A DNA stretch of 61,103 bases. Source: Candidatus Pacearchaeota archaeon. Its GTDB lineage: Archaea > Nanobdellota > Nanobdellia > Pacearchaeales > GW2011-AR1. The notes beneath the pieces were generated by a model. That model worked only from the letters and a program-made list of their open reading frames with translations. It had not been told where the DNA came from and made no database searches. Positions 27,801-52,662 of the stretch are shown here, one piece after another. Both the position numbers and the translations under genes were made by a program. The stretch covers positions 1-61,103 of the forward strand of contig VGKQ01000004.1 of the NCBI GenBank assembly GCA_016866995.1. Direction: 5' to 3'. Position 1 is the first letter of the stretch; every line of letters starts with the position of its first letter.

Positions 27801-29814
27801 GGGCACTGGATATTATGCTGTGACATTAGATGTTAATGGGACAGATACTGGAAATGCGTGGTTTAATACGCTTGCGTTTTATGTTGAAACAACACCAACA
27901 AATGCAAATGGCTCGGGATGGAAATCCGGAATTAGAGGGCATTTGCCAATGTATTTTAATGTAACAACTGTCAAGAATTACAAGTCAGGATATTCCTGGT
28001 ATAATGGCTCTGACTGGTTTTATATAAGATATAATCAATCAGATTATGTGAATGTAACAGTTGATGATGTTGTCTTGAGAACATGGGATTATAATACTTA
28101 CACATCAAAAGAATATAATTATCCTGAAGATATAAACATAACTCCTTTCAGCATTAATGGAAGCGCTGTTGTAAATATAACTTATAAAAATGGGACATGG
28201 CCTACTGGATATTACTGGGGAGAATTGAGCTTGAAGAATTCTGACAATGAAACTTCAACAGGCTGGCTTTGGTTCTCTGTCCAGCCGTTTAGAGTAAATG
28301 TGCAGGCAACTAATTATGAAATAGACTATGACCAGTGTGTCAATGCTTCATTATCCATTTACGAGCCAGATTGGTATTCAACAGAGCCTTTATGGGGAAA
28401 TTATTCAGTAACAAGTGTTTATGAGAATATCTGGAGCGGGGGAGGAAGCAGCACAACTGGATATACAAATTATACTTCTGGAAGCTTTAATGCAACGACA
28501 AATATAACTTTATGTCCAAATAGCGCAACATGGGGAAGTGGAAGCTGGGGAGGATATCATTATATGAATGTTGTTGTTAAGGATAATGCTTTAAATGACA
28601 CTCAGACAGGATGGCTTTATTTTAAGGCTACTCCTTTTAGAATTAGTTGGAGCGGGACAGGAGGGAGCAGGCAGACAAATGAAAACTTTAATGTCACTGC
28701 TATTGTAGTTAAACCTACAACTGGCTTGAATACAACAGCAAATTTAACTAGAATTTACCAATGGAGATATGATAATTATATGAGCACACTTGAGGAATAC
28801 AGATTTAAAGTAGGAAGCTGCGACTCTGCTGTTTCAGGACAGTGCACTGTAAATGGAACACAGAATGTGACAATATATGCGCCTAGTGGAGGATGGAAGG
28901 TTGGTTATAATTATTTATATTCCCAATGGAAGAGCCAGACTGATTCAACATTAGTAGTTGATGATTGGTATGGGATTTATTTTGATGGAAGAGAGGCATA
29001 TAATGGATGGTTTGAAAACAGGGATGCTGGCGGCTATAATTGGAAGTATGAGTTTGCAAATAATGAGAATTTGACAATCAAGCTTTTCACAAGGGATTCA
29101 AGTTATAGTGCTGCTGATTTAACTATTAGATCTGTGCAATATGCATATTCTGCTGACAGCTGCGGAGGAGAATGGTGCAAAACTTATTCTACTGCAACTT
29201 TCTCGCCAACATCAACATCTGGAGGAAGTGCTTTAATTAAAATTCAGGTGCCGAGCAATAACTGGAGTTATGGATATTATTATATAAAAGCAAGTGTTGA
29301 AGGGAGCGGAGGGGCAGCTACAATATTGGGAGGAGAGGTAAGAGTGAAAGATTTGACTGCGCCAAATGTTACAATACATACTCCTCTAATGAATGGCACT
29401 TATTCAGGAAATAACTTGTCATTTGCAGCAACAACAAGCGAGAATGCTGAATGTGGACTTGGAATTTATAATTTTGAAAGTTATTACAACTGGATGTGTT
29501 GGGGATGGAATTTATCAAATAATTCAGTAATCCAGAGATTTATTGATTCGTGCAATGCTTCGTATTATGGATATAATGGAACAAGCTATTATAATTTATG
29601 GATTTCAAAAGATTATTATTCTGCTTATAATGGCTCTGTTTCAAGTTATGGTACTGGGAGCTATATGACAACAGGTTCAAGAGCACACATCTATGTATTT
29701 AATACAACAGAATGGCCTGCACAGCATTATGGGTTGTATGTATGGTGCCGTGATAATGACTGGAATTATGGAACTTCAATGGCTACATTTAAAATAAATA
29801 ATAGTGTTACATAA
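24829..29814 (+). CDS. giant Asn/Ser/Thr/Tyr/Trp-rich secreted surface protein
   Basis: 1661 aa. N-terminal signal/anchor LKLFISALFVLVFSISFISLISA. Very many N-x-S/T sequons and repeated WGTGYY / WKTGYY / WPTGYY beta-sandwich-like modules. The start codon is uncertain (GTG at 24829). Confidence 0.85.
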   Translation: MLEKYLNLFFLNSLLKKEINLRSLKLFISALFVLVFSISFISLISAYYVGNIYFTIPDSVFKTNERVEFVGYLFLANYTENGTYVSSSMPVANATINLTIYNSTVFVSNYTFTTDFQGKFYSRSSYYGSATQVNTSSNPGKYIIRAEYIDPENMTWFSEVEIEVFNSTLDLLSVSSEKVKYNSLETIKVNVEAIRMLGDNLFYIANVSVLGSLRNSSKAALGTFSCTTGSSGKCSTTVNAPLTYGSYILEVNNYKAFSSFVVAPFSANAYMKDELGKSMKNIFSVGEQGRVEVSILNATSTDVYNFSGYIANPTGSSIKAINPTLLNSNNSFTNSFLFSIDNQFTYGTYTAFLTIYKRGDGSITTSTSFEVKDWDLSINKRASNSGFEYKYSVFPNKTMYFEAYPTYRTNGSVIPGINSTFFSINMTDNLNNIIKTANMSWNSSCGTSGCYQFYINSSSNTGKFFLSVSLAYGGDIQTKNQIVDVIGSVMSAQSTDKDGNIKELFGTNEYAYLSLTAYNLTSSSFNLTDAEIFLVSYMNGSDFLYTQVNNFSLVNSSNSAYEWAWNSTLQRIKLDVPKAGGIFNVLLFGDNRSIGTETKFIVNPYDACLSPKNTPGSVTSGYYYVYQFKTTDTVYFEIKMYQANNPLGRATATNGTNGSTYGMGSQCASDSTKQAVTNATLSVQEVKNLESVATQNINASESTCQASDNSGAYTCTVKPLSKWDGGGSIVKIAVRGQDGTTTIIYGRFESRAFYMYGYPSTWQNNPSSNISLNLQIYEAGSNWWSTYGGSGGLSGTVTLKKIEYQGSDGEWLWPPISYNYNVTAVNSTSITSGRGTINLTAALAPGGRWKTGYYRVILQATTTSGDTDYGYAWFGVKLWDVYGSPVECNNYGCGYKSYFNSKENVSLYVTINKAGSNYWSYSGGQDIGGNVTLGVKKVQNCRTWPCKELNSTDYVATRTTVNASSPWYWNANLNSTFNKYFVYINTTKGSWGTGYYAVTLDVNGTDTGNAWFNTLAFYVETTPTNANGSGWKSGIRGHLPMYFNVTTVKNYKSGYSWYNGSDWFYIRYNQSDYVNVTVDDVVLRTWDYNTYTSKEYNYPEDINITPFSINGSAVVNITYKNGTWPTGYYWGELSLKNSDNETSTGWLWFSVQPFRVNVQATNYEIDYDQCVNASLSIYEPDWYSTEPLWGNYSVTSVYENIWSGGGSSTTGYTNYTSGSFNATTNITLCPNSATWGSGSWGGYHYMNVVVKDNALNDTQTGWLYFKATPFRISWSGTGGSRQTNENFNVTAIVVKPTTGLNTTANLTRIYQWRYDNYMSTLEEYRFKVGSCDSAVSGQCTVNGTQNVTIYAPSGGWKVGYNYLYSQWKSQTDSTLVVDDWYGIYFDGREAYNGWFENRDAGGYNWKYEFANNENLTIKLFTRDSSYSAADLTIRSVQYAYSADSCGGEWCKTYSTATFSPTSTSGGSALIKIQVPSNNWSYGYYYIKASVEGSGGAATILGGEVRVKDLTAPNVTIHTPLMNGTYSGNNLSFAATTSENAECGLGIYNFESYYNWMCWGWNLSNNSVIQRFIDSCNASYYGYNGTSYYNLWISKDYYSAYNGSVSSYGTGSYMTTGSRAHIYVFNTTEWPAQHYGLYVWCRDNDWNYGTSMATFKINNSVT

Positions 29815-37370: not shown

Positions 37371-37500
37371 AGCCCTGTCGTCCAGCGGTCAAATTCAATA
37401 ATTTTATTGTTGAAGACTTGGGATAGTGGCCTTTGGTCCAAATTCATCAGAATTTGCTGAACGAAAGCCATTGACGGAGGTTCGAATCCTCCCAGGGCTA
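37371..37500 (+). tRNA. tRNA-Gln (anticodon UUG) with two introns (D-loop and 37/38)
   Basis: Acceptor AGCCCTG/CAGGGCT. D stem GTCC/GGAT, separated by 37 nt. Anticodon stem GTGGC/GCCAT with loop CTTTGG|29-nt intron|A. T arm GGAGG-TTCGAAT-CCTCC. Confidence 0.7.
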
Positions 37501-40180: not shown

Positions 40181-43100
40181 TTACATCCTGATTTTTCTTC
40201 CGAACTTTTTCGCTAACTTGAGCATCTGCTTTTGTGAGAAGCCCTGCTGCATTTCTGACATATCTCCATCTTTTATAAAACTTGAAATCATCTTGTATTG
40301 CTTGAGAAGAGCCCGGACATCGCTTGTATTTATTCCAGAGCCTTTTGCTATTCTTGCTATTCTGCTTGTCTGTTTTTCAATTATTTCTGGATTTTCTATT
40401 TCCTCGCGAGTCATGCTCTGGATTGCAAATTTCCATTTTTTTATTTTTTCTTCCTGATTTTCCAGCATGTTTTCCGGAATTTTTGCATTTCCTAATCCTG
40501 GAATTAAATTTTTTATTTTTGACAGAGAGCCGATGTTTTCCATGCTTTTTAGCTGTTCTAATAAATCAAGCATTGTGAATTTGCCTTCTTTTAATCTTTC
40601 CTGCATTTGCTTTTGTTTTTTCTCATCTACAACAGATGAAACTCTTTCTATTAAACTCTGCAAATCTCCCATGCCAAGCATTCTTGACAAGAAACTTGAG
40701 GGATTAAACAACTCAATATCATGAACATGCTCGCCTGTTGTTATAAAATAAACAGGAGCTTTAGTCTCATGGCACGCTGTCAATGCACCCCCGCCTTTTG
40801 CTGTTGAATCCATTCTTGTTATAATTACCCCATTAATTGAAAGAGCTTTTTGAAATTCAGAAGCTTGCTTTTTTGCAGCCTGCCCAATATCAGCAGGCAT
40901 TACAAGAATTGTGTAATCTGGCTTCAACTCGCGTCCTAATTTTTTTATTTCATTAATTAAATCTTTATCTAGAGCATCTCTCCCTGCTGTGTCTACAAAA
41001 ATCAAGTCATATTGGTTTAACTCGCGAGAAAATTTTTTCCATGTTTTTATTGGGTTATTCTCTTCTTTGTCAATGAAAACTTTGAAATTATTTTTATTTC
41101 CAAGCTGTTCTAACTGCTCGCGAGCAGCTGGACGATGAACATCCAAGCCAAGAGCTGCTGTTTTAAATCCCCTTTTGTTGTAATATGCTGCTAATTTTGA
41201 GATTGTTGTTGTATTATGCACAATAAAGTTATCTGCGATGAAACTATGATTATCTTCTATTGTCAAATCATAAACATAATTTTCATCATTTTCTAATTTT
41301 TTAATATCACTTATCTGCCCCCATTTAGCATCCGAGTATGCTAAAATCCTTAGATTATTTAACTCTTTTAAGAAATGTTCTTGATTAATTGAGGCAAGAT
41401 ACTTATTGCCTATTGAAGTTAAAATATTGCTTTTATTGATAAATCCTGCTTTCTGTAAGTGAGTTATCATTCCATTTAAAATGTTATGATTTATTGTTTC
41501 ATTATGGTTTAGTTTATTGAGAATTATTGGAAAGATTCCTAATCTTTTTGTTTCATAGTATAAAACCAACTTAATTAACTGCTCTTTGGAGATAAACCCT
41601 GCTTCTTCATATCTTCCATAGCTATTAACTGCACTCTGGATTTCTCCTATCGAGAACCCTCCCATCTCCCTGATATTCTTTAAATAATCTCCCAGTGGAA
41701 TCATCTCATTTCTTCCACTTCCCTGAATTTGCCCATATAACTGGAATTTTGATAGGTTTTCTTTTTTATGAAAAATAACCGAGCCTATTTTTTCTGCGTA
41801 TCTTTCAGATGATCTTCCGGAGATTATCATTCTGCAATAATCCTTGCCATTTACTTTCTTGCAGGATATGGAGCTTGATATTGAAAATCTTTTAAGCAGA
41901 AAACTTATTTGTTGAATTAATGTTTTGCTTTCAGAAGTTAATTCAATCTGCCTTGAGCCTTTTGATGGTGAGCCATCGCAATCAAAATATGCTTTTATAA
42001 AACTTTTGACAACCTCATTATCTGATTTTAGTATTTCTTCAGGAACTTCCATGTTCGTTCCTTTTCTGCCAGCTTTTAATTTAAATATCTCTAATAATTT
42101 GACTAAGGTTGTTGAACAGAAGATTACTCTGAACATTTTGTTGGTCCTTAAATCTCTCTTAATTTTTGGGGCAGTATTAAATAAGTTCTTCCCAAGATAA
42201 GTTAGCCTTTCAATAATCTCCTTGTCTTCGCTTACTATTTCAATATATTGTTTTCCGATATGCCCATCTCCCATTAAATATCCTAAAAATTCTGCAAACT
42301 CTGGATTAATTGTTAAAGGAATTGAAATAATATTTTTACTGTTTTTTAACTTTGCAGTAATAATGTTAAAATTCTCCAGGCTTACTAATTCTATTGGAAC
42401 TTGCCCCTCTCTTAAAGAGATTGTAAAACAGCAGTAATTTTTTTGGCATTTAAGGCTTTTACAAATCTCTTTTATTTCTTTGTCTCTTATAATCTCTTGA
42501 ACTTGCTTTTTAGTCAGGCAGAGGTCTAAATTAAGAGTTTTTATTTTATTTCTAATTGACTGAGGAATTCCACTAATTTCTATTTTTTCTGGAATGGCAA
42601 TGAAATTTTCTTTAGTTAACTCATCTGCTCTTATTTGAATAATCTTCCCCTCCTTTAAGGCGAAAAAGGGATGTTCTGGAGTTACTCTGATTGAGAAATC
42701 ATTGCCATTATCTATTTTTACTTCATATAATTCTTTCTTTTTCAGCTTCCACAAATGAGTTGCTTTTTTATTTTCTATCTTGCAGGTTTTAGGATTAAAT
42801 GATGGGACAAATAATTCCTGGCTTGAAATATCTATTATTTTTCCGTCTTCTAAATATGATTCTCTTAAAAATAAATATTTATCATATAATTTTTCTGCTT
42901 TAATCAACTCGCCTGTTGAAAGTTGTATTTTTGTATCTTTATGAACGCATTTTCCTGCTCCGTACAATCCAAGAAGCATAATTTTAATATTCTTGTTTTT
43001 TTCTAATTCTAATTCTTTCTGGCTTCCTCCTAAAATTTCGAGCAATTTATCATGAAGCAACTTGATTATATGCTCTTTTTTCTCTATTCCCTTAATTCTC

Positions 43101-43285
43101 TCGTCAAAAGCTGCTTTTCTTAGTTCGTCACTTAAATTTTTGACAAGATGAATATTTACATCTGCTTCTATCAAAGCTCTCTGCAAGTCTTTTATGATGC
43201 TTTCAACAATATTTTTGTCAAGAAAAATAGCATTAGCTATCTTGTCTGTTGCTTTTTTTATTGCTGATGAAAGTTTTTCAAACAT
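40181..43285 (-). CDS. srp54: signal recognition particle protein SRP54, interrupted by an intein in the P-loop
   Basis: N domain is present. The G-domain P-loop GLYGAGK|TTT is split by the intein. DTAGR, TRMDSTAKGGGAL and a Met-rich M domain follow. The exteins total 455 aa. Confidence 0.95.
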   Translation of the reverse strand: MFEKLSSAIKKATDKIANAIFLDKNIVESIIKDLQRALIEADVNIHLVKNLSDELRKAAFDERIKGIEKKEHIIKLLHDKLLEILGGSQKELELEKNKNIKIMLLGLYGAGKCVHKDTKIQLSTGELIKAEKLYDKYLFLRESYLEDGKIIDISSQELFVPSFNPKTCKIENKKATHLWKLKKKELYEVKIDNGNDFSIRVTPEHPFFALKEGKIIQIRADELTKENFIAIPEKIEISGIPQSIRNKIKTLNLDLCLTKKQVQEIIRDKEIKEICKSLKCQKNYCCFTISLREGQVPIELVSLENFNIITAKLKNSKNIISIPLTINPEFAEFLGYLMGDGHIGKQYIEIVSEDKEIIERLTYLGKNLFNTAPKIKRDLRTNKMFRVIFCSTTLVKLLEIFKLKAGRKGTNMEVPEEILKSDNEVVKSFIKAYFDCDGSPSKGSRQIELTSESKTLIQQISFLLKRFSISSSISCKKVNGKDYCRMIISGRSSERYAEKIGSVIFHKKENLSKFQLYGQIQGSGRNEMIPLGDYLKNIREMGGFSIGEIQSAVNSYGRYEEAGFISKEQLIKLVLYYETKRLGIFPIILNKLNHNETINHNILNGMITHLQKAGFINKSNILTSIGNKYLASINQEHFLKELNNLRILAYSDAKWGQISDIKKLENDENYVYDLTIEDNHSFIADNFIVHNTTTISKLAAYYNKRGFKTAALGLDVHRPAAREQLEQLGNKNNFKVFIDKEENNPIKTWKKFSRELNQYDLIFVDTAGRDALDKDLINEIKKLGRELKPDYTILVMPADIGQAAKKQASEFQKALSINGVIITRMDSTAKGGGALTACHETKAPVYFITTGEHVHDIELFNPSSFLSRMLGMGDLQSLIERVSSVVDEKKQKQMQERLKEGKFTMLDLLEQLKSMENIGSLSKIKNLIPGLGNAKIPENMLENQEEKIKKWKFAIQSMTREEIENPEIIEKQTSRIARIAKGSGINTSDVRALLKQYKMISSFIKDGDMSEMQQGFSQKQMLKLAKKFGRKIRM
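41213..42949 (-). mobile_element. SRP54 intein with LAGLIDADG homing-endonuclease domain (579 aa)
   Basis: Starts with Cys (GAGK|CVHKDTKIQL) and has block B TPEHPF. LAGLIDADG motifs are LGYLMGDGHIG and AYFDCDGSP. It ends FIVHN followed by Thr (HN|TTTISKL). Confidence 0.9.
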
Positions 43286-43297
43286 GTTTTATTTTCC

Positions 43298-44107
43298 TTA
43301 TATTGTGTCAAGAGGGCTTTTTATATTTTTTATGTTTGCCTGTGAGATTTGAGTATAAATTTGAGTGGTTTTTATATCTGAGTGTCCAAGTAGTTTCTGT
43401 ATTATTCTTAAATCTGTTCCCTGCTCAAGAAGATGGGTTGCAAAACTATGCCTTAATAAATGAGGATAAACTTCTTTTTTAATTCCTGCTTTTTTTGCAG
43501 AATTTTCTACTATTTTTGCAATTGTTTTTTTAGTTAATTTTCCTTCCCTGTTGGAAGGAAATAATATTTTATCACTATTCAGCTTGCAATATGCTTCAAG
43601 CTCTTCTTTTAATGAATCCGGAATTTTAACAAACCTGTCTTTTTTTCCTTTCCCAAGGCTAATATGAATCAACTTTTCTGAAAAGTTAACATCCTCTTTC
43701 ATTAAATTTATGATTTCAGAAACGCGGAGCCCGCAGCCATATAAAACCTTTAGTATTAGCTTGTGCTTTATATTGCTTGTTGCCTGAACCATTTGTCTGA
43801 TTTCTTCTTTTGTTAGTATCTCGGGAATTTTTTTGTTTCTCTTTGGTTTTGGAATACAGATTTTTTGATTTAATATATTCTTAAAGAAATATTCTATTGC
43901 AAATATGCTGTGAGAAACTGAAGATGGTTCATTTTTCTTTAGCTGAAAAAGAGCAAAATTACTGGCAGTTTCTTTATTCATACCTTTGTTTTCTGTGAAT
44001 TCAAGATATTTTTTGACATGAATCAGATAAGATTTTATAGTTTCCCCTGAATAATTTTTCAGAAGAAGATTTTCTTCAAGTTTTTTTAATAACCCTTGAT
44101 ATTTCAT
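43298..44107 (-). CDS. tyrosine recombinase (Xer/IntI-like), candidate integrase of the adjacent cassette array
   Basis: Catalytic R (CGLRVSE), K (GKGKKDR), HxxR (HLLRHSFATHL), H (LGHSD) and Y (TQIYTQI). N-terminal SAM-like domain (NYSGETIKSYLIHVKKYLEF). Only 269 aa, with no long insertion before the HxxR box. Confidence 0.88.
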   Translation of the reverse strand: MKYQGLLKKLEENLLLKNYSGETIKSYLIHVKKYLEFTENKGMNKETASNFALFQLKKNEPSSVSHSIFAIEYFFKNILNQKICIPKPKRNKKIPEILTKEEIRQMVQATSNIKHKLILKVLYGCGLRVSEIINLMKEDVNFSEKLIHISLGKGKKDRFVKIPDSLKEELEAYCKLNSDKILFPSNREGKLTKKTIAKIVENSAKKAGIKKEVYPHLLRHSFATHLLEQGTDLRIIQKLLGHSDIKTTQIYTQISQANIKNIKSPLDTI

Positions 44108-44154
44108 AAGTTTTACATTTTTTTATTATTTATAAAGATTACTATATATCTTAA

Positions 44155-44200
44155 TTGGATATGTAAATTTACCATAATTTCCATATCCAATATGTTAGTT
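44155..44200 (+). other. attI-like site
   Basis: A 9-bp inverted repeat TTGGATATG-N18-CATATCCAA is followed by TAT and GTTAGTT (44194-44200). It lies 87 bp from the recombinase start codon. No left core or palindromic partner is present. Confidence 0.45.
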
Positions 44201-44312
44201 GCAATTTGCCCCCTCGCTACGAAAATGAACGGAAGCTCTACCACTGATAATTATTCATTTATTAGTGATTACAAAAGGAAGATTTATATACTCTTTTAAT
44301 ATTATTCATGCT

Positions 44313-44966
44313 ATGGAAAAGACATTAAAAGAAAGATTTGACAAGTGCTCTTGGGATGAGTATTTTTATAGAAAATTTCACGCGCTTTGGCGCTCTGTCC
44401 AAGCAAGAGGAGGCTATGAGATAGCTAATCTTTTTATGCAAGAACGAGCTGGGAATCTACATTTATTTCCATGTGGTGCAGAAGGAATAGGTTTACCAAC
44501 TGACGAGTTGTCTCAACTTATCTATGTTCCTAGAATGGTATTAGAACTAGATAAGAATTCAAAGAGCAAAGATAGGGAGAATGGTATAGCATTCTTTTCC
44601 AAAGATGATTTAAATCAATTTACAGATAATAATCTGCCATACCCTCACTACCATGATGTCACTCTTGTTGATTTTATTTTATATACCGGTTCAGAGAGAT
44701 TAAGAGGAAATAGTAACGAATATTTAACAAGCCAACAAGTTTTAGATAAAATAGCTCATGATTTCTTATATCAACAGAAAGCCATGCAATATTCACGAAG
44801 ATTATTATGGCATTGTAAAAGGAGGAATGATAAAGATTTAGGAACTGATGAGATAAGAGATACTACCACAGAGATTTTTAGACCTAAATCCAGCAGAGAA
44901 AAGGTGGATAGATTTATACATGAACTTATTGTTTTATACGCTTCTGAAATGGACTTGACTTTTTGA
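44313..44966 (+). CDS. cassette 1 ORF, hypothetical protein
   Basis: 217 aa from MEKTLKERFDK. A TATA-like tttatata lies about 30 nt upstream. No recognisable motif. Confidence 0.65.
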   Translation: MEKTLKERFDKCSWDEYFYRKFHALWRSVQARGGYEIANLFMQERAGNLHLFPCGAEGIGLPTDELSQLIYVPRMVLELDKNSKSKDRENGIAFFSKDDLNQFTDNNLPYPHYHDVTLVDFILYTGSERLRGNSNEYLTSQQVLDKIAHDFLYQQKAMQYSRRLLWHCKRRNDKDLGTDEIRDTTTEIFRPKSSREKVDRFIHELIVLYASEMDLTF

Positions 44967-45050
44967 TTTTTTCGCTTGCTCGGGGGCAAACTTTGATTTT
45001 TTGCTTCGCAACATTGCACTAAAAATCAACCACTCCAAGTATTCGTGGGC

Positions 45051-45166
45051 AACTAACAGCGATTAAGTGGTTACGCTCGGTTGCACCTCGCTCCACCCAT
45101 ATTTTTCGGAAATTTATAATATTTTTAGATAGTCCGAAAAACATCGCTTAATCGCATATGTTAGGC
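45051..45166 (+). other. attC-like site 1 (116 bp)
   Basis: Structure is AACTAAC-A-GCGATTAAG ... CTTAATCGC-ATAT-GTTAGGC. The internal stem is TTTTTCGGA/TCCGAAAAA. Confidence 0.7.
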
Positions 45167-45209
45167 AAAATAAATTTTTGGGCGATAATAGGACATCTTA
45201 AGAATTCTA

Positions 45210-45575
45210 TTACTTATTCAAAAAAAAGTTTATAAGTTTATATATTCCATACCCAATACCACCATAAACAGCAACACCTCCTACAATCATTACTGCAGTC
45301 ATTATCTTTTCTTCACGAGAACTCATTTCTTTTTCATAAGCTGCTGTATATTCTGGGTGATTTTCCTTTAACCAAAAATATTCTTCATGAGAAAGTCTAG
45401 GTCTTTGCCAAGGAGAAGGCATTGCAGAAGGAGCATTATTGTCTAGTGCATGTTCATCTAACTCTCTTTCTCTTTCCAATATTCCTTCTAATTGTCCAGG
45501 GCTAATGTACTCTCCTCTTGCAAATTTAGATTCAAATGCCCTATAATCAACTGTATGATTTTTCTCATTTACCAT
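45210..45575 (-). CDS. cassette 2 ORF, hypothetical membrane-anchored protein
   Basis: 121 aa with a C-terminal TM helix (IMTAVMIVGGVAVYGGIGYGIY). It has its own AT-rich upstream region containing a TATA-like box. Confidence 0.65.
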   Translation of the reverse strand: MVNEKNHTVDYRAFESKFARGEYISPGQLEGILERERELDEHALDNNAPSAMPSPWQRPRLSHEEYFWLKENHPEYTAAYEKEMSSREEKIMTAVMIVGGVAVYGGIGYGIYKLINFFLNK

Positions 45576-45701
45576 ACTATAAAGAATGTTATATAAATAT
45601 ATAAACTTTATGATTACTTCTCGCCCAAAAATTTACTCTGCGGATTTTTCGAAGAAAAAATCCTTGCCACGTTGCACTCTCCTCCCTTCGGTCGTCGGGT
45701 C

Positions 45702-45834
45702 GCCTAACAGCGATTAAGAGGAAACCTCGTTGCACTTCGGTTTCCCAAATTTTTTGCCAACTCTCAAAAATCCTCCAGTTATATGGGTCGGATTTTTGGA
45801 GGGCAAAAAACTTCTCTTAATCGCGATGTTAGTT
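45702..45834 (+). other. attC-like site 2 (133 bp)
   Basis: Structure is GCCTAAC-A-GCGATTAAGAG ... CTCTTAATCGC-GAT-GTTAGTT. The inner arms are complementary at 11 of 11 positions. The internal stem is imperfect and contains bulges. Confidence 0.75.
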
Positions 45835-45908
45835 GCAATCAGCCTCGGGCGCCTATTAGATTTTTCATCACAATAATCCTTTTAAAGACTAATCTTATTC
45901 TTTTATTC

Positions 45909-46580
45909 ATGGATGAAAAATTAGTTAGAGGGGAACTTCCTATTCAATCTGTTTATCAGAGAGGAGAAGCAGTTACTGCTACTGTTCCTATTCATTTAGC
46001 TGTGATGGATTTACCAGAGAAAGTTAGAACTGATGTTTCTTTAATCGCAGATGCGAAGGATATTGTTAAGCTATGGTATGATGAAGACATGGCTTATTAT
46101 CTGCGTGTTTTGAGAGAAGCAGATATGGAACTCCCTTGGCTTGAAGATTATGAAAGATTTAAAGATGAGTGGCAGCTTGATGGAGAACCAAGTGACGGAT
46201 TTTTATCTTTATCTTGGAGAGAAAACGGAGAAGTTCATAATATAAAATATAATTCTGTGCCTGTAGTTCTTCGCAACCAACACGATGAATTTGGAGAATT
46301 TTATACTCCAGAATCATGGAAACGAGGAGGTTGGATTGAGATAATCTATAGAAATGTAACAGACCCTGAAGTTGTTGCAATGAGCCCGGAAAAAATGCGA
46401 AGGTATGGTAGAGAAACAGACATCGCCAGAATCCATGAAGATAGAGGTCTTGCCGAAGTTGTTGGTAATGCTTTTAGTTCTGATTATCATATGAATATGG
46501 CAAAAACTCTGCTATTGAGAGATTTTGCAGTTTTCTATTTAAACAGATTGCTGGATAAAGCTAACGGAAGTTCCCCTTAA
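45909..46580 (+). CDS. cassette 3 ORF, hypothetical protein
   Basis: 223 aa from MDEKLVRGELPIQ. The track start at 45783 lies inside attC-like site 2 and was trimmed. Confidence 0.65.
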   Translation: MDEKLVRGELPIQSVYQRGEAVTATVPIHLAVMDLPEKVRTDVSLIADAKDIVKLWYDEDMAYYLRVLREADMELPWLEDYERFKDEWQLDGEPSDGFLSLSWRENGEVHNIKYNSVPVVLRNQHDEFGEFYTPESWKRGGWIEIIYRNVTDPEVVAMSPEKMRRYGRETDIARIHEDRGLAEVVGNAFSSDYHMNMAKTLLLRDFAVFYLNRLLDKANGSSP

Positions 46581-46655
46581 TTTTACGGCGCCCTCGGCCG
46601 ACTTCTCCGAATTTTTGTTCCAAAAATTCTCGACCTTCGCAAGTTTGCTCAGGGG

Positions 46656-46750
46656 ACTTAACAGCACTTTTACGGTTCCGCCTTCGCTCTGCCGCTCGGC
46701 TCCACCCAAACTTGCCTCCGGCAAGCTTCGTAAAAGTGCATATGTTAAGT
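46656..46750 (+). other. attC-like site 3 (95 bp)
   Basis: Structure is ACTTAAC-A-GCACTTTTACG ... CGTAAAAGTGC-ATAT-GTTAAGT. The arms are complementary at 11 of 11 positions. The internal stem is CTTGCC/GGCAAG. Confidence 0.75.
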
Positions 46751-46812
46751 CGAATAATTTTTCGGGCTCGCTTATTGGAATTCCCACCCACGTTAGGGGC
46801 ACTCTCAAAGAA

Positions 46813-47223
46813 TCACAAATACTTTTTAACAAGATTTGCAGCAGTAAATCCAATACAATAACCAACTGCAGTTTTTCCTGCACCTAAAACTGCTCCTCGT
46901 GCAGCAAATGGCAAGGCAGATTCTGAGTACCTTTCTACTGATGCCATTGTAAAACTTCCAACTAAATACTCTGCTCCAGATTGAAGAACGGTTGGAGCAA
47001 TTTTCATAGATAAATCTGCTACCAATGGAGCATTTATTCCAAATCCGTCTAAAAATCCTGCAGTTGCTCCGCTAACCAATGCAACAATTCCAAACAATCT
47101 ATCTATAGAATTTCTTTTCCCTTGTTCCTTTAATTGCTCATTTAAAGGATGCCCCTTTACTCTTTCACAGACAAGTCTATCTAAAAGACCTATATTCTTT
47201 GTATCATAAGTTTGATCTGCCAT
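46813..47223 (-). CDS. cassette 4 ORF, hypothetical Gly/Ala-rich membrane-associated protein
   Basis: 136 aa, with glycine-zipper-like segments (GIVALVSGATAGFLDGFG and GAVLGAGKTAVGYCIGF). Confidence 0.6.
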   Translation of the reverse strand: MADQTYDTKNIGLLDRLVCERVKGHPLNEQLKEQGKRNSIDRLFGIVALVSGATAGFLDGFGINAPLVADLSMKIAPTVLQSGAEYLVGSFTMASVERYSESALPFAARGAVLGAGKTAVGYCIGFTAANLVKKYL

Positions 47224-47414
47224 CTTGTTATTTTCTCAGAAATCGCTGAGGACGAATCACCTCAATGATGATAATAAGCGTCGACTTTTAAACCTTTCGA
47301 AAGTGCCCCTTTTTCGTTTCCCACCCTACGAAATTGGCTCGCCCGAAAAATTACTTCTCCTTCCTTTCAGTCAGTCGACCACATTGCATTCTCAAGTCTG
47401 CGGACTTTCGGGGC

Positions 47415-47473
47415 GTATAACAGCGATTATATACAATTCAGAAGTCGGCTATATCGTAAAAGAGGGGTTTCGG
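47415..47473 (+). other. attC-like site 4 (degenerate)
   Basis: Structure is GTATAAC-A-GCGATTATATA ... CTATATCGT ... GTTTCGG. The left core and arm are good, but the right core fits GTTRRRY poorly. Confidence 0.4.
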
Positions 47474-47508
47474 GCTAGCAATTACAAAATTATTACTAAA
47501 TTAAAATT

Positions 47509-48210
47509 CTAAACGCCAACTTGTCTATTGAGTACTTCCATACAACGTGATAGAACTTCCCTATCATACTGTAGCATTTGTAAATTATGCTCAAGAGGCC
47601 ATGGTATAACATCCTCAGGAGGTTTGTGGGATAATCTATAAAACCACGATTTCCTCACATATTCCTGCCACCTTGCCTTAAATTCTTTTGCTTTTTCAAT
47701 AATTTGTTTTTTAGTACTTTCCATCTCTTGTAAACAAGTAGCATATTTCGATTCTAAAAAATATTTTGTTTTACCCCTAAATAGATTGTTTTTTGCTACA
47801 TCTTCCATATCATGAATACTAAGGTATCTACCTATTTCTTCAGGTTCTACTCTAGCCCCCATTTCCACAACCTTTGCTAGTACTAACCCTACACCTAAGG
47901 GAATGTTATGATTTTTAAATAAAATTTCTCTCAGTTCTTCTGGGGTATACTCAATTCCAAGCTTCTGTGATAGTGTTAAGTAAGTAGTTGTGAACCAGCC
48001 ATCTACTGTAACTGAAGTTTGGGACTCTGGATGTATCATAGCTTCATATAATCCATCCCGGAATTCTTTTGTGACTACTACTTTTTTATCTTCTGTAGAA
48101 TTTACAAGATTATTTATATATCGATTTCTTTCAGCGATACTGCCACTTAAACAACCCTCTAAAGATCGCTTATCCAAAACAATTTCTACTAATTGATTAT
48201 CTTTTCCCAT
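47509..48210 (-). CDS. cassette 5 ORF, hypothetical protein
   Basis: 233 aa. An SD-like gaggt and a TATA-like aaagtttatatt lie upstream on the minus strand. Confidence 0.65.
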   Translation of the reverse strand: MGKDNQLVEIVLDKRSLEGCLSGSIAERNRYINNLVNSTEDKKVVVTKEFRDGLYEAMIHPESQTSVTVDGWFTTTYLTLSQKLGIEYTPEELREILFKNHNIPLGVGLVLAKVVEMGARVEPEEIGRYLSIHDMEDVAKNNLFRGKTKYFLESKYATCLQEMESTKKQIIEKAKEFKARWQEYVRKSWFYRLSHKPPEDVIPWPLEHNLQMLQYDREVLSRCMEVLNRQVGV

Positions 48211-48448
48211 TTTTACCCACTTACCTCTTCATTAATTAGGAATAATATAAACTTTAAAAATATATCGCCCGAACCCCTCTTACTTCTTTTACTCTAATGC
48301 TCTCCGAGCTTTATACGCCGACTTTTGAACTCGAAAGTTTTAATCTTCTTCCTTGTTCACTCCGTTCACAATATCAGAAGTTAAATCTTTCGGTTTTCTC
48401 CGCTCGAGGGAAAATCAAAGATTTTCCAGCTCTGAGCTTCGAAAACGA

Positions 48449-48497
48449 ATATAACAGCGATTAAGTGAAATTCAAAAATCGTGCTCCCAAGTTACGT
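48449..48497 (+). other. attC-like site 5 (short, 49 bp)
   Basis: Structure is ATATAAC-A-GCGATT ... AATCGTGCT-CCCAA-GTTACGT. The arms pair with one bulged base. Confidence 0.55.
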
Positions 48498-48508
48498 TCG
48501 GGGCAAAA

Positions 48509-48832
48509 TTATCTCAACACAGCTACATCTACAGGCTTCATATCTCTGTCACCTGCTCCGTCATAGAATTGTTTTATATTAGCCATTTCTGCAATTCTTC
48601 TTAGAAAATCTTTTACTTCTGGAGTTCTATAATTACAACTTGACCAACACTGAACTAAAAGTGGAAAATCTTCTTTAGGAGTATATCTTACAAGACAAAC
48701 TTTGTTATCGCTTAACCATTGTCTATTTGGAAGTTCGCATGAACTATCTTGCATATTAAGCTCTCGACTACATAAATCTGCAAGATTTTCCACTTTATCT
48801 TTTGGAAATGAATCCAACCAATAGTATGCCAT
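48509..48832 (-). CDS. cassette 6 ORF, hypothetical protein
   Basis: 107-aa ORF with no recognisable motif. Confidence 0.6.
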   Translation of the reverse strand: MAYYWLDSFPKDKVENLADLCSRELNMQDSSCELPNRQWLSDNKVCLVRYTPKEDFPLLVQCWSSCNYRTPEVKDFLRRIAEMANIKQFYDGAGDRDMKPVDVAVLR

Positions 48833-48968
48833 GACATTTGAGAACTTCAGACTGCTTATAAATTTTGCCCCTCACTAATTCAAATTTCCCACCCGCCCAC
48901 GCACGATTTTTGAACTCAAAATTCTTTCAGAATTTTTGGGACGCTGCGCTTTCGCTATCGCTCAGGGC

Positions 48969-49086
48969 ACTTAACAGGCATTAACAGGAATTTTACTCGG
49001 CTCGTGATTTTCCCAAATTGAGTTCTCAGCTCTGTTCCCTTCAGTCACGAGGAGAACTCAACTTCTGTTAATATGGGATGTTATGT
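48969..49086 (+). other. attC-like site 6 (118 bp)
   Basis: Structure is ACTTAAC-AGGC-ATTAACAG ... CTGTTAAT-ATGGGAT-GTTATGT. The internal stem is TTGAGTTCTC/GAGAACTCAA. Confidence 0.7.
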
Positions 49087-49127
49087 CTAATTCAAAATTC
49101 GGACTAAAAAAATAGAAACCGAAAGAT

Positions 49128-49601
49128 TTATTCTCTCGGAGAAAAAGTTCCATCACCATTGTTCAATAATTCATAAACGTTTGCAGTTAAATTTCCAACA
49201 TATGAAACAACAACAGCATCTAATCTTCCATCTCCATTCATATCTCCTGTTGCAACACCCGCTCCAGTACCCCATGTTGGAACTGATCCTATTTTTCTAG
49301 TTTTATATTGACCATTTCCTAAATTTTCATTTAAGTAAACGTTTGCAGTTAAATTTCCAACATATGAAACAACAACAGCATCTAATCTTCCATCTCCATT
49401 CATATCTCCTGTTGCAACACCCGTTCCAGTACCCCATGTTGGAACTGATGCAACTGGTTTAGGAGCTGATGCTTTTTCTCCTTCAGATTTTGAACATCCT
49501 ATTGTGCCTAAAGCCAATACTCCTACCAATACAATACTTGTTAATGTTTCTTTAATTATCATACAATTAGATATTAATGGCATGTTTATAAATCTTCCCA
49601 T
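49128..49601 (-). CDS. cassette 7 ORF, lipoprotein-like protein with two FG-GAP/VCBS-type repeats
   Basis: Signal plus LGTIGC lipobox-like motif. The segment VPTWGTG.GVATGDMNGDGRLDAVVVSYVGNLTANVY is repeated twice. Confidence 0.7.
   Translation of the reverse strand: MGRFINMPLISNCMIIKETLTSIVLVGVLALGTIGCSKSEGEKASAPKPVASVPTWGTGTGVATGDMNGDGRLDAVVVSYVGNLTANVYLNENLGNGQYKTRKIGSVPTWGTGAGVATGDMNGDGRLDAVVVSYVGNLTANVYELLNNGDGTFSPRE
49174..49449. repeat. tandem duplication, two 114-nt copies 162 nt apart
   Basis: 49174-49287 and 49336-49449 differ at one position (cccgCtcc versus cccgTtcc). They encode the two FG-GAP-like repeats. Confidence 0.85.
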
Positions 49602-49715
49602 ATTTTTACTACTCTAGAATTAATAATAAAAGCGCGCCCCGTCCCCCGTCCTTAAAATTACTCTAAAATTAATCTTACTTGCCACATTGCATTTTCGGGC
49701 TGATGCCCTCGGGTC

Positions 49716-49741
49716 GCTGAACAGGGCTTAACAGGTTCAGG
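49716..49741 (+). other. terminal truncated attC-like site
   Basis: Reads GCTGAAC-AGGGCTTAACAG-GTTCAGG. The left core plus arm resembles site 6 (AGGCATTAACAG), but it abuts a right core directly. Confidence 0.4.
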
Positions 49742-49827: not shown

Positions 49828-50985
49828 TTAATCTAAACCCAGTGCTTTGATTATTTCTTCTTTATTGAATTCCTCCAAATCTTTGTAATCCTGCCCTGTT
49901 CCGAGAAATAAGATTGGCTTTCCTGTCACATAACTGACACTTAAACTTGTTCCGCCTTTTTCATCAACATCCTGCTTGCTTAGAATTATTCCATCAATTC
50001 CAACTGCCTGGTTAAATGTCTTGGCTTGTTCTGTCGCATCATTTCCTGTTATGGCTTCTCCTACAAATAATTTCAAGTCTGGCTTGCTTACTCGAATAAT
50101 TTTTTCCATTTCCTTGAGAAGACTTGAGTTAGTGTACATTCTTCCTGCTGTGTCTACAAGAACAACTTTTATTTTTCTTGCCTTTGCATATTCTATTGCA
50201 TCATATGCAACTGCTGCCGGGTCTGAGCCGTATGTTTGTTTTATTACTTTAATTCTGAGCTTTTCTCCATGCTTGACAAGCTGCTCAATGCTTGCTGCTC
50301 TAAATGTGTCTGCTGCTGCGAAAACACTTGAGATTTTATTCTGTTTTAAGAAACTTGCGAGCTTAGCAATTGTTGTTGTTTTTCCGCTTCCATTTATCCC
50401 AAAGAAAACAATAACAAATACACCTTCTTTGCTTTTTATTTTCTCGATTAAATTAAAACCCTGAATAAATAAACTTGAGAGCGAGTTTTTAAGAGCTGTT
50501 TTTATTGCTTCTTCAACCTCTTCTTTTTTTACTTCCTTGTCAACAAGTTCTTTTTTCAAGTTCTCGCGCAAGTAATCAACAACATCAAGAGCGACATTAT
50601 TTTCAAGCAAAATATTTTCTAAACTCTCAAATAACTCTGAAAAATCTTGTTCTGTTATTCTGTATTTTCTTGACAACCCAATTCTCTCCCAGAATGATTT
50701 TTTTTCTTCTGTTTCTTTTTTTTCTTTTTCCTGCTTGATTTGTTCAATAATTTCATCAGGGCGCGGAATAGGCCTTATTTCTTCTCCTTTTTCTTTCTTG
50801 ATATCTTCTATTAAATCACTTGAAATTTTTCTTTCTTCTTCCAGCTCTTTTTTTGTCCGTATTTTATGTTCAATTTTTTCTTTTGGCTTTTTTTCCTTGA
50901 TTTTCTTTTCTTCTTTTTTTGGTTTCAGAACTACAACTTTCGGCTTTATCCATGATTTCAGCTTATCTTTCAGGAAATTGAACAT
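49828..50985 (-). CDS. ftsY: signal recognition particle receptor FtsY
   Basis: Lys/Glu-rich N-terminus. NG domain with GINGSGKTTTIAKLA, DTAGR and SKQDVDEKGG. Confidence 0.93.
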   Translation of the reverse strand: MFNFLKDKLKSWIKPKVVVLKPKKEEKKIKEKKPKEKIEHKIRTKKELEEERKISSDLIEDIKKEKGEEIRPIPRPDEIIEQIKQEKEKKETEEKKSFWERIGLSRKYRITEQDFSELFESLENILLENNVALDVVDYLRENLKKELVDKEVKKEEVEEAIKTALKNSLSSLFIQGFNLIEKIKSKEGVFVIVFFGINGSGKTTTIAKLASFLKQNKISSVFAAADTFRAASIEQLVKHGEKLRIKVIKQTYGSDPAAVAYDAIEYAKARKIKVVLVDTAGRMYTNSSLLKEMEKIIRVSKPDLKLFVGEAITGNDATEQAKTFNQAVGIDGIILSKQDVDEKGGTSLSVSYVTGKPILFLGTGQDYKDLEEFNKEEIIKALGLD

Positions 50986-51840: not shown

Positions 51841-52398
51841 ATGATAACATATAATGATTTATACGAGCTTTTGAGAAAGGAAAGATATTCTGAGCAGATA
51901 CAAATCCTGCCCGGAAGTTTTTTTGATGATGTAAGAGACTATTTTGAGGACAAAAAACAGATGACTTTGAAAGATACAGACATGTTTTCAGATGCTGTAA
52001 TCAAGTCAAAGAAGCAGTTTGAAAATGCAATAAGCATATTCCGAGAGCTTATGCTTAGAAGAAGAAAGAAGCTCTTGAATCTGGCTTTTGTTGCTGCTGA
52101 GACTGGAATTTCAAAGAGAGATTTTGAGAATATGCTTGATTTTGAGAGAGAGCTTTTTGAGAAGATAATAAAAAGCATGGAAGACACTGAAAAGAAAATA
52201 TCTGAATTTTTAAACGGGAAGAAGCAGGAACAAGAGAAGAACAGGATGATTGTTTTTAAGGAAGATACTTCTGAATTTCTTGGCACAGAAGGAGAGATGA
52301 TAGGACCTTTCAAAAAAGGAGATATTGCGAATCTTCCTGTTGAGATTGTGAAAATTCTGGAGACAGCAGGGAAAATTGAGAAAATAGAGGATAACTAA
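51841..52398 (+). CDS. GINS-subunit-like replication protein (tentative)
   Basis: 185-aa helical protein. N-terminal YNDLYELLRKERYSEQIQILPGSFFDDV and C-terminal GPFKKGDIANLPVEIVKILETAGKIE resemble archaeal Gins15/51, from memory. Confidence 0.45.
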   Translation: MITYNDLYELLRKERYSEQIQILPGSFFDDVRDYFEDKKQMTLKDTDMFSDAVIKSKKQFENAISIFRELMLRRRKKLLNLAFVAAETGISKRDFENMLDFERELFEKIIKSMEDTEKKISEFLNGKKQEQEKNRMIVFKEDTSEFLGTEGEMIGPFKKGDIANLPVEIVKILETAGKIEKIEDN

Positions 52399-52483
52399 GC
52401 CTGTAGAGAGATTCGAACTCCCGACCCCCGGTTTTCTTGCATTGATACAAAACCGATGCTCTGACCAGCTGAGCTATACAGGC
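52398..52483 (-). tRNA. tRNA-Thr (anticodon UGU) with a 12-nt intron at 37/38
   Basis: Acceptor GCCTGTA/TACAGGC, D arm GCTC-AGCTGGTCA-GAGC, anticodon stem TCGGT/ACCGG, loop TTTGTA|TCAATGCAAGAA|A, T arm GGGAG-TTCGAAT-CTCTC. Its 3' end touches the stop codon of the upstream gene. Confidence 0.85.
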
Positions 52484-52662
52484 TTGAAAATATGAGAAAA
52501 AGATTATTTTTAAGGTTTTGTATCTTTTATGCTTCTTAGCTTGAACTTAACTTTGTTTTTGATTTAGAAGACATTTATTAGCTTAATTTAACCTGATTAT
52601 TGATTTAAAATTTAAGATAGTTTAGGTGTTATTAATAATGAGAATAATTAAAGTAAATAGAA

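Follow-up and report, generated by a model that had tools for sequence, protein, structure and literature searches.

An array of gene cassettes beside a Xer-type recombinase in a Candidatus Pacearchaeota genome, probably an integron-like capture platform

We analysed 61,103 nt of contig VGKQ01000004.1 (assembly GCA_016866995.1, forward strand; this whole stretch is called the window below) from a Candidatus Pacearchaeota archaeon, a member of the DPANN archaea. Between the core genes srp54 and ftsY, the window carries a gene for a Xer-type tyrosine recombinase and, beside it, an array of small open reading frames (ORFs) accompanied by imperfect palindromes. This locus is probably a chromosomal integron-like platform for the capture of gene cassettes, built of Xer-type parts. 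The palindromes form a family of sites with a covarying stem, they are linked exclusively and in a fixed orientation to their recombinase genes, their cores carry the permutation signature of inserted circular cassettes, and haplotypes of such arrays differ at a GTT. An initial annotation, made from the letters of this DNA, had already proposed a gene-capture platform between srp54 and ftsY in an archaeon of this kind; the flanking genes and the Pacearchaeota lineage agree with that proposal, and the capture reading itself was borne out by the permutation signature, the hypervariable content of the arrays and the haplotype breaks at GTT.

The recombinase gene and the neighbouring site, which we call attI-like, comprise the following features (coordinates are those of the window).

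43298-44107, minus strand: XerA-type tyrosine recombinase of 269 aa without the IntI-specific insertion, the presumed cassette recombinase (NF040815; alignment with 4A8E)
44130-44148, minus strand: putative promoter-like TATA/BRE (TATA box and B recognition element) of the recombinase gene, TTATAAAGATTACTATATA; TATATAAAGGTTACTAT is kept at the same position in related loci
44154-44191, no strand assigned: dif-like inverted repeat of the attI-like site, ATTGGATATG, 18 nt, CATATCCAAT, with perfect 10-bp arms
44192-44205, plus strand: attI-like junction AT, G|TTAGTT, GCAAT, the likely insertion point of the first cassette, which complements the left core of site 1 and is also indicated by haplotypes of relatives

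The arms of the inverted repeat lie at 44154-44163 (ATTGGATATG) and 44182-44191 (CATATCCAAT), and they are followed by AT and then by GTTAGTT at 44194-44200, 87 bp from the start codon of the recombinase gene. The presence, position and spacing of this repeat had been correctly described, except that its arms measure 10 bp and not 9. In related loci, which were retrieved via homology to the recombinase, the attI-like consensus consists of a dif-like palindrome, a spacer of 2-5 nt and G|TTNNNN-KCAAT. A perfect inverted repeat of at least 9 bp ends no more than 5 nt before the GTT in 11 of the 14 loci of clade A, the archaeal array-linked recombinases, and the arms of the palindrome covary between genomes, with their complementarity kept.

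To the right of the attI-like site there are seven ORFs, 107-233 aa long. Two are read from the plus strand, and the other five share the minus strand with the recombinase gene and point towards it. The sites that accompany them are listed below with their scores under R2, a covariance model of this site family, and with z values for the folding of the single-stranded DNA against shuffled sequences.

45051-45166, plus strand: cassette site 1, AACTAAC-A-GCGATTAAG...CTTAATCGC-ATAT-GTTAGGC (R2 95.9 bits; fold z -3.9)
45702-45834, plus strand: cassette site 2 (R2 100.2 bits; fold z -7.1)
46656-46750, plus strand: cassette site 3 (R2 80.1 bits; fold z -4.7)
47415-47431, plus strand: site 4, a decayed left half that keeps TAACAGCGATTA only (no R2 match)
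48449-48497, plus strand: site 5, a decayed left half that keeps TAACAGCGATTA only (no R2 match)
48969-49086, plus strand: cassette site 6, outside the R2 training set (R2 55.9 bits, E 1.6e-10; fold z -1.3)
49716-49741, plus strand: site 7, a truncated left half (R2 13.8 bits, E 0.8)

The coordinates, cores and perfectly complementary inner arms that had been assigned to sites 1, 2, 3 and 6 were all confirmed, and in the proposed folding of single strands, sites 1-3 fold far better than their shuffles and site 6 only modestly so. The count of seven units, each with a palindrome, was too high: only these four sites are solid. Sites 4 and 5 are decayed and fold no better than shuffles (z +0.8 and -0.2), and the truncated site 7 is homologous to the left half of a complete site in a related locus (L007). 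The asymmetry that had been described, with a shorter left side, stands at 1 nt on the left versus 3-4 nt on the right. Neither an unpaired central spacer nor extrahelical bases in R''/L'', both of which had been expected, were found: the bases of the spacer pair (GCG/CGC), the L arms complement each other perfectly and have no bulged base, and the 3-4 extra bases are on the R' arm. The orientation of the sites is uniform, whichever strand the gene of the cassette occupies.

The same architecture occurs upstream of homologous recombinase genes in related loci. From its 5' end, the family consensus reads tcgggNc, RYYYAAC, a single A, an L'' arm of 11-12 nt and a variable region that always contains CCCAAAT, followed by AACTTC, the L' arm, GAT, ATAT or GTAT, and finally G|TTNNNN-KCAAT. 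The AAC and GTT are invariant, and together these elements form an R''-L''-variable-L'-R' imperfect palindrome with RYYYAAC/GTTRRRY cores. In an alignment of 12 sites, double compensatory changes are found at 9 of the 12 pairs of the L stem, and 98.3% of the L-stem cells are paired, a fraction that is inflated for part of the stem by the picking of the R2 training sites through 7-mer complementarity and that drops to about 40% once the partner is displaced by 1-3 columns.

When the window was scanned with R2 on both strands and with filters off, matches were obtained for sites 1, 2, 3 and 6 only. Because R2 matches only the array in these 61 kb, the sites are not genome-wide repeats, and a chance occurrence is excluded; the question, raised by the initial annotation, of whether the palindromes recur as generic terminators or repetitive extragenic palindromic (REP) elements is answered, within the window, by the lack of any R2 match in its other 55 kb. 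In the window and 18 related loci (332 kb), R2 gave 40 matches at E <= 0.01, including matches in loci outside the training set; all 40 diverge in orientation from the recombinase gene, with 39 located upstream. No Rfam family matches the sites of the window.

A further conserved element was seen in the arrays of relatives, consisting of GAAAAACTT-CTTTTACCC, about 36 nt, and ATATAAC-AAA-GGGTAAAAG-GTTCGC...CCCAAATTTTTC. It is found in L007 (~6390-6290), L005 (~2790-2690 and ~1900-1800), L014 and L018, often just past the attI junction, scores about 19 bits with R2, and looks like permuted half-sites, with a right-half arm upstream of a left half.

A circular cassette that opens at its own G|TT should have a left core that complements the six bases at its own start, and in the array these six bases are the right core of the preceding site. 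Of 39 junctions (40 aligned matches), 24 have a left core whose seven nucleotides are exactly the reverse complement of the preceding right core or attI junction (13 among the 19 first junctions and 11 among the 20 internal junctions), while the left core matches the right core of its own site in only 2 of 38 cases. When the partners were shuffled 20,000 times, exact junctions averaged 1.95 and never exceeded 9. In the window, the junctions from attI to site 1, from site 1 to site 2 and from site 3 to site 6 are perfect: the left core of site 1, AACTAAC, is the exact reverse complement of the attI-like GTTAGTT, and the left core of site 6, ACTTAAC, exactly complements the right core of site 3, GTTAAGT. 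Because the cores of sites 3 and 6 complement each other, the 2.3 kb with three ORFs between them appears to act as a single unit, and the cassettes can be delimited as follows.

44195-45160, plus strand: cassette 1, ORF 44265-44966 (plus strand, 233 aa, no family) and site 1, delimited by core complementarity
45161-45828, plus strand: cassette 2, ORF 45210-45575 (minus strand, 121 aa) and site 2, whose left core GCCTAAC exactly complements GTTAGGC of site 1
45829-46744, plus strand: cassette 3, ORF 45909-46580 (plus strand, 223 aa) and site 3, with the same gene call in L001
46745-49080, plus strand: composite unit with ORFs 46813-47223, 47509-48210 and 48509-48832 (all on the minus strand), the decayed sites 4 and 5, and site 6
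49081-49741, plus strand: last cassette, ORF 49128-49601 (minus strand, 157 aa, FG-GAP repeats, signal-peptide-like N-terminus) and the truncated site 7 (FG-GAP_3, 4.7e-15)

Population data show site-specific gain and loss of cassettes at the same point. A metagenome scan with the attI junction pattern returned one contig (L094), and the population data were taken instead from contigs that bear P0082, an identical recombinase protein of one Pacearchaeota species from Crystal Geyser that occurs with three array haplotypes and the same core flank. Two of these, L095 and L098, show no differences on the recombinase side or in their distal cassettes, but the blocks in between, of 7.0 kb and 6.8 kb, are unrelated. 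The third, L104, equals L095 minus 4.5 kb, which are missing exactly between the attI GTT and the GTT of a site. All three are identical through ...CCGTTATGTT (read ...GGTTAATATCCGTTATGTT) and diverge immediately after the homologous attI GTT, and L104 continues with what, in L095, comes after GTTGCTT, the right core of an R2 site. The difference between L095 and L104 is the expected product of a precise event between attI and a site at G|TT. The opposite polarity, in which the array would read from right to left, agrees with the extra bases on the 3' arm and with the mostly minus-strand ORFs that end at a site; it was rejected because the boundary between constant and variable sequence on the attI side is the GTT beside the conserved palindrome. 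Within this population, L097 (4826-5057) also differs from L098 (7982-8097) by a 116-nt tandem duplication that splits a 363-aa array ORF into ORFs of 119 and 273 aa.

The comparison with relatives that had been proposed for this locus revealed hypervariable content, as the 78 ORFs of 19 arrays yielded a single weak protein match between loci. The DNA that arrays share is limited to site-related non-coding segments with 73-90% identity. In the window, a recognisable family was found for one of the seven cassette ORFs, the FG-GAP repeat protein of the last cassette, in which a 127-nt direct repeat (94% identity, 162-nt period; 49174-49300 and 49336-49462) corresponds to two FG-GAP repeats. In relatives, array genes include N6/N4 and C5 DNA methylases, a HaeIII-type endonuclease, a Fic/DOC protein, an MNT-HEPN pair, a DsbA-like thioredoxin, a NUDIX protein and CbiM.

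Several segments shared between arrays deserve description. The first ~75 nt of a cassette (window positions 49061-49135; GTTATGTCTAATTCAAAATTCGGACTAAAA...GAAACCGAAAGATTTATTCTC) are 85% identical to L005 416-489, after which unrelated ORFs follow; on the minus strand, this segment has a hairpin and a T-run, like a terminator for reversed ORFs, and its sharing suggests that there are cassette "scaffolds" in which ORFs may be exchanged. Similarly, window positions 44988-45064, the stretch before site 1 together with its left half, are 89.6% identical to L013 9133-9209 and L094 1881-1957, from a lineage whose recombinase is only 71% identical. In that lineage, a different ORF precedes the segment, the site lacks its right half, and in L094 the MNT-HEPN pair comes next after it. 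Lastly, L012 (9473-9794 and 5850-5958) holds three near-identical copies of one site (ACAGAAC-AT-ATATTAAAGAG...) in one array, two of which are 105 nt apart and form a cassette without an ORF.

The recombinase was correctly recognised in the initial annotation as a minus-strand tyrosine recombinase of 269 aa, but an integron integrase as the enzyme of the array was not borne out. Its best NCBIfam model is NF040815 (XerA_Arch), with 236.6 bits against a cut-off of 220, while the integron integrase model TIGR02249 gives 210.7 bits, under its cut-off of 265, in a two-piece match. NF040815 does not discriminate among three clades, as it also matches the homologues from the candidate phyla radiation (CPR) and a second DPANN clade. 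The best solved relative is XerA of Pyrococcus abyssi (4A8E, E 5e-49), with which the protein is colinear. By contrast, the alignment with VchIntIA (2A3V) spans only IntI residues 8-179 and 242-318, skipping residues 180-241, and the recombinase has 18 aa where IntI has 62. Because this alignment jumps from 179 to 242 over 18 query residues, the IntI-specific insertion of about 44 aa is absent. The motifs GLRVSE, GKGKKDR, HLLRHSFATH, LLGHS and TQIYT are all kept in this alignment. Array-linked homologues are all about 270 aa long, and those with 70-81% identity to the recombinase are plentiful in metagenome-assembled genomes (MAGs) of Candidatus Pacearchaeota. The curated product name of NF040815 is "site-specific tyrosine recombinase/integron integrase", which is why MAG proteins without the IntI domain are already labelled "integron integrase".

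The attI-like site, too, has a link to Xer/dif. The dif used in experiments with XerA of P. abyssi is ATTGGATATAA-TCGGCC-TTATATCTAAA (PMC2958812), and, in a comparison with that sequence, the palindrome arms of the window (ATTGGATATG/CATATCCAAT) nearly equal the dif arm ATTGGATATAA. A canonical dif has 28 bp, with 11-bp arms and a 6-bp spacer, and the perfect 10-bp arms of the window are 18 nt apart; L015 and L017 present the canonical 11-6-11 layout, CATAA-N6-TTATG, and L019 also has a 6-nt spacer. Cassette starts read TTNNNN-KCAAT, as in L016, where TTATATGCAAT can be compared with the palindromic dif arm TTATATCCAAT. Judging from these sequences, the G|TT crossover would lie at the inner edge of an 11-mer that resembles a dif arm. 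In L015 (~9850-9930, the locus with the 6-nt-spacer palindrome), GTTAGTT-TCAATTTT is followed about 70 nt on by AACTAAC-ATAAT-TAGTTTCAATTTT, a minimal site that has cores and no L arms. Because R2 finds nothing in L015, other subfamilies of sites probably exist.

Array-linked recombinases are not confined to archaea. Many R2 matches lie upstream of recombinases that are 42-45% identical to that of the window in MAGs labelled Patescibacteria, Parcubacteria and Moranbacteria. In these CPR loci, lepA, PPIase, HtrA and ClpB genes come after the recombinase gene and MurJ lies beyond the array, and the flanking lepA, HtrA, ClpB and MurJ indicate that the loci are truly bacterial. Their analogue of the attI-like site reads CTATACGAA-AACAC-TTCGTATAT-AAACGA-GTTNNNN-GAAAT. 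In a rough neighbour-joining tree of recombinases, the archaeal clade A and the CPR clade C are sisters. Overall, linkage and fixed orientation relative to array-linked recombinases extend over some 20 loci in two domains, and the module of recombinase, palindrome and array adjoins different core genes in different genomes.

A second DPANN clade of Xer-like proteins, clade B, behaves differently: R2 matches were found in 0 of 11 loci, with no palindrome-plus-GTT site upstream. It is a large family, 68-74% conserved in Pacearchaeota and about 44% identical to the recombinase of the window, and it may be the true housekeeping XerA. Both clades occur in one MAG (L047 and L086, of which L086 is a short contig; one contig is a 3.7-kb fragment). 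No contig was common to the two lists of Xer-like homologues, a comparison that is in itself uninformative. Clade B loci (L024, L025, L029, L031, L039, L041, L047, L053 and L057) have a conserved upstream motif of their own, GATTRTRCGAACTTGTTTATA.

Integrons are defined by IntI and by its special domain, located around patch III, which reads folded attC sites. The present locus shares with them a recombinase gene that is divergent from the adjacent insertion site, tandem cassettes, each closed by an imperfect palindrome that has inner L arms and cores of the form RYYYAAC...GTTRRRY, a G|TT crossover, and a cassette left core that complements the core at its own start. At least two sites lie less than 4 kb apart in a single orientation, cassettes are mobile, turnover is attI-proximal, and content is hypervariable and mostly of unknown function; as in integrons, the arrays of relatives also hold restriction-modification, toxin-antitoxin-like, and secreted or membrane genes. 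Unlike integrons, the system has a recombinase that scores as XerA and lacks the IntI-specific insertion, its attI is a dif-like palindrome, and its hosts are DPANN archaea and CPR bacteria. Moreover, integron cassettes are promoterless, co-oriented and expressed from Pc, whereas here ORFs lie on both strands and, going by their sequences, appear to have promoters of their own.

The sites themselves also depart from attC. A canonical attC reads TAAC-AATTCA-TTCAAG...CTTAA-TTCAAGC-GTTA, in which the spacer stays unpaired and the R''/L'' arm has extrahelical bases, whereas the window sites read TAAC-A-GCGATTAAG...CTTAATCGC-ATAT-GTTA, with a paired R-L spacer, a bulge of 3-4 nt on the R' side, an L stem of 11-12 bp and the conserved motifs CCCAAAT and KCAAT. 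As a surrogate for the canonical attC covariance model, we used R1, built from attCaadA7 and seven archaeal attCs recombined by IntI1 (Ghaly 2022, Data S10), a model that penalises long sites. In a positive control, R1 found 8 of the 9 attCs in two class 1 arrays with 24-65 bits and on the correct strand, one 114-nt attC being found weakly (9.8 bits). On both strands of the window, where the initial annotation had suggested such a scan, it reported none of sites 1-7, its best score within the array being noise of 7.9 bits, and it gave no match in 82 related loci. We take this silence as evidence that the sites are non-canonical and not that there are no sites. The assignment to the architecture of integron attC sites is at odds with the IntI, attC-model, spacer and ORF-direction results.

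The report of archaeal integrons mentioned in the initial annotation is Ghaly 2022 (PMC9668308), which described them in 75 MAGs, with the IntI-specific domain in all six IntIs. Its Pacearchaeales MAGs contain integrase-less attC clusters only, detected with IntegronFinder, and no IntI (PMC9668308). Because Pacearchaeales are integrase-less there and the archaeal IntIs all have the IntI domain, the present variant is not covered. In Smyshlyaev 2021 (PMC8138268), the Xer-related recombinases found in candidate phyla are assigned to a "Cand" group and regarded as likely Xer substitutes, and cassettes are not mentioned. In the searchable full-text literature, outside of which most subscription journals lie, we found no account of XerA-linked cassette arrays in DPANN or CPR, and a prior description is possible.

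With archaeal XerA/dif, the system has in common the recombinase family, as NF040815 is passed, palindrome arms close to the P. abyssi dif arm, and a cassette-start motif, TTNNNNKCAAT, that resembles a dif arm. It differs in that the dif of Thermococcales is not adjacent to xerA, in its spacer of 6-18 nt, in recombination beside the palindrome that builds a cassette array, and in that Pacearchaeota have a further Xer-like clade that shows none of these features. Integrative mobile elements exploiting Xer (IMEX), such as CTX-type phages, and the dif modules of Acinetobacter plasmids are integrase-less elements that gather in tandem at a Xer site, and the CTX substrate is a folded single-stranded hairpin. 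Unlike these, the arrays described here have cassettes on the scale of single genes and a dedicated family of structured sites, and recombinase, site and array move as a module between contexts and domains.

If the locus works as we propose, circular cassettes would recombine the G|TT of their own site with the attI-like G|TT and thereby insert beside the recombinase gene, and recombination between two sites, or between attI and a site, would excise cassettes. We infer that the sites act as folded single strands, and likewise which strand recombines. Each cassette seems to bring its own promoter and terminator, which could explain why ORFs lie on either strand. AT-rich TATA-like sequences are found inside cassettes, upstream of reversed ORFs, and sites stand directly after stop codons, with T-runs on both strands.

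Several points weigh against this proposal. XerA enzymes read dif arms by sequence, whereas the L arms of the sites are free to vary; the recombinase also lacks the domain with which IntI reads folded attC sites. The adjacent enzyme is the presumed catalyst, whose action on the sites we infer from sequence. The spacer of the attI palindrome ranges from 6 to 18 nt across loci and is not fixed at 6, and, with sites 4, 5 and 7 decayed, the array may be partly frozen. The selection of the R2 training sites, mentioned above, and the roughness of the recombinase tree belong here too. Finally, the array-linked clade may be a dedicated paralogue or the sole cellular Xer; a single MAG shows both clades.

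The main rival is related to this last point. CTX-type elements exploit XerCD/dif, and the cassettes could similarly be IMEX-like hitchhikers on a housekeeping Xer/dif system, in which case the palindrome would be the chromosomal dif, the recombinase an ordinary XerA, and there would be no dedicated capture system. The palindrome arms that are almost identical to the P. abyssi dif arm, the canonical 11-6-11 layout of L015 and L017, the passing of the XerA equivalog model, the housekeeping-like conservation of 70-81% across the order, and the treatment of the "Cand" group as a likely Xer substitute (PMC8138268) would all fit. We nevertheless consider it rather unlikely, given that Pacearchaeota have a second conserved Xer-like family without arrays or palindrome, with at least one MAG bearing both, that the crossover lies beyond the outer end of the right arm of the palindrome and not in its spacer, that the cassette sites are long structured palindromes with freely varying arms instead of copies of dif, and that the module adjoins different core genes in different genomes. 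Hitchhiking and a capture platform have most of the mechanism in common, and what divides them is whether the system is a dedicated one. The existence of clade B and a crossover that falls outside the palindrome speak for dedication, and neither is decisive.

Two other explanations leave the neighbouring recombinase without a role. The array could be an ordinary integron cassette cluster, of the type called clusters of attC sites lacking integron-integrases (CALIN), served in trans by a distant canonical IntI, with the XerA-type gene nearby by chance. The R''-L''...L'-R' layout, the AAC/GTT cores and the G|TT crossover are those of integrons, and integrase-less attC clusters have been reported in Pacearchaeales MAGs (PMC9668308); yet IntI is reported for no Pacearchaeales MAG in the same study (PMC9668308), the surrogate attC model is silent in the window and 82 loci despite finding 8 of 9 class 1 attCs, 13 of 19 first sites exactly complement the conserved site beside the gene, and linkage and fixed orientation relative to array-linked recombinases are kept in about 20 loci of two domains. 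We regard this as improbable. Far less probable still is a reading in which the sites play no part in recombination and are generic palindromes between genes, either REP-like elements or bidirectional terminators. Their T-runs on both strands and their position just after stop codons speak for termination, which may well be a secondary role, but none of them occurs in the remaining 55 kb of the window, their orientation is uniform regardless of gene strand, and terminators cannot account for the permutation signature or the precise haplotype breakpoints; the confinement of R2 matches to the array, together with these last two observations, refutes this idea.

Should the capture platform be confirmed as such, it would combine integron behaviour, that is, ordered capture, attI-proximal turnover and G|TT crossover, with a plain Xer-type enzyme, which bears on the origin of integrons from Xer recombinases and on the minimal needs for recombining structured sites. 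We see it as evenly balanced whether these loci represent a hitherto undescribed family of gene-capture platforms that spans two domains of ultra-small symbionts (DPANN and CPR/Patescibacteria), with a Xer-type recombinase that lacks the IntI insertion, a dif-like attI and structured sites of its own. Such a system may represent a surviving stage between Xer/dif and integrons, or the integron principle may have been invented independently here, and genes might also be exchanged in this way between DPANN and CPR organisms in shared habitats. It would give these organisms, which have tiny genomes and few recognised mobile elements, a dedicated route to accessory and defence genes. The integrase, and probably many of the sites as well, escapes detection by the usual integron-finding programs, which would leave current counts of integron-like systems too low. 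Owing to its small size, the system lends itself to direct tests in E. coli or in vitro.

The core genes that flank the locus are the following.

40181-43285, minus strand: srp54, core flank, with an intein inside (Pfam families given for the same gene in L001)
49828-50985, minus strand: ftsY, core flank (SRP54_N and SRP54 families in L001)

The srp54 product has 1034 aa and is split by an intein whose homing-endonuclease domain is of the LAGLIDADG type; for the identical srp54 gene in L001, the Pfam families Intein_splicing and LAGLIDADG_3 are given. The cassette ORFs had been described as less AT-rich than the flanking core genes, and GC content is indeed higher at 45-50 kb (0.36-0.41) than in the immediate flanks (0.30-0.33), although it reaches 0.43 in other parts of the window. 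The most GC-rich part of the window (0.41-0.43) holds two giant ORFs at 18761-24583 (plus strand, 1940 aa) and 24829-29814 (plus strand, 1661 aa). Elsewhere, a tRNA-Gln of 88 nt is found at 52397-52484 (minus strand), and a 130-nt Rfam tRNA match at 37371-37500 (plus strand), which is missing from the ARAGORN predictions, is probably an intron-containing archaeal tRNA.

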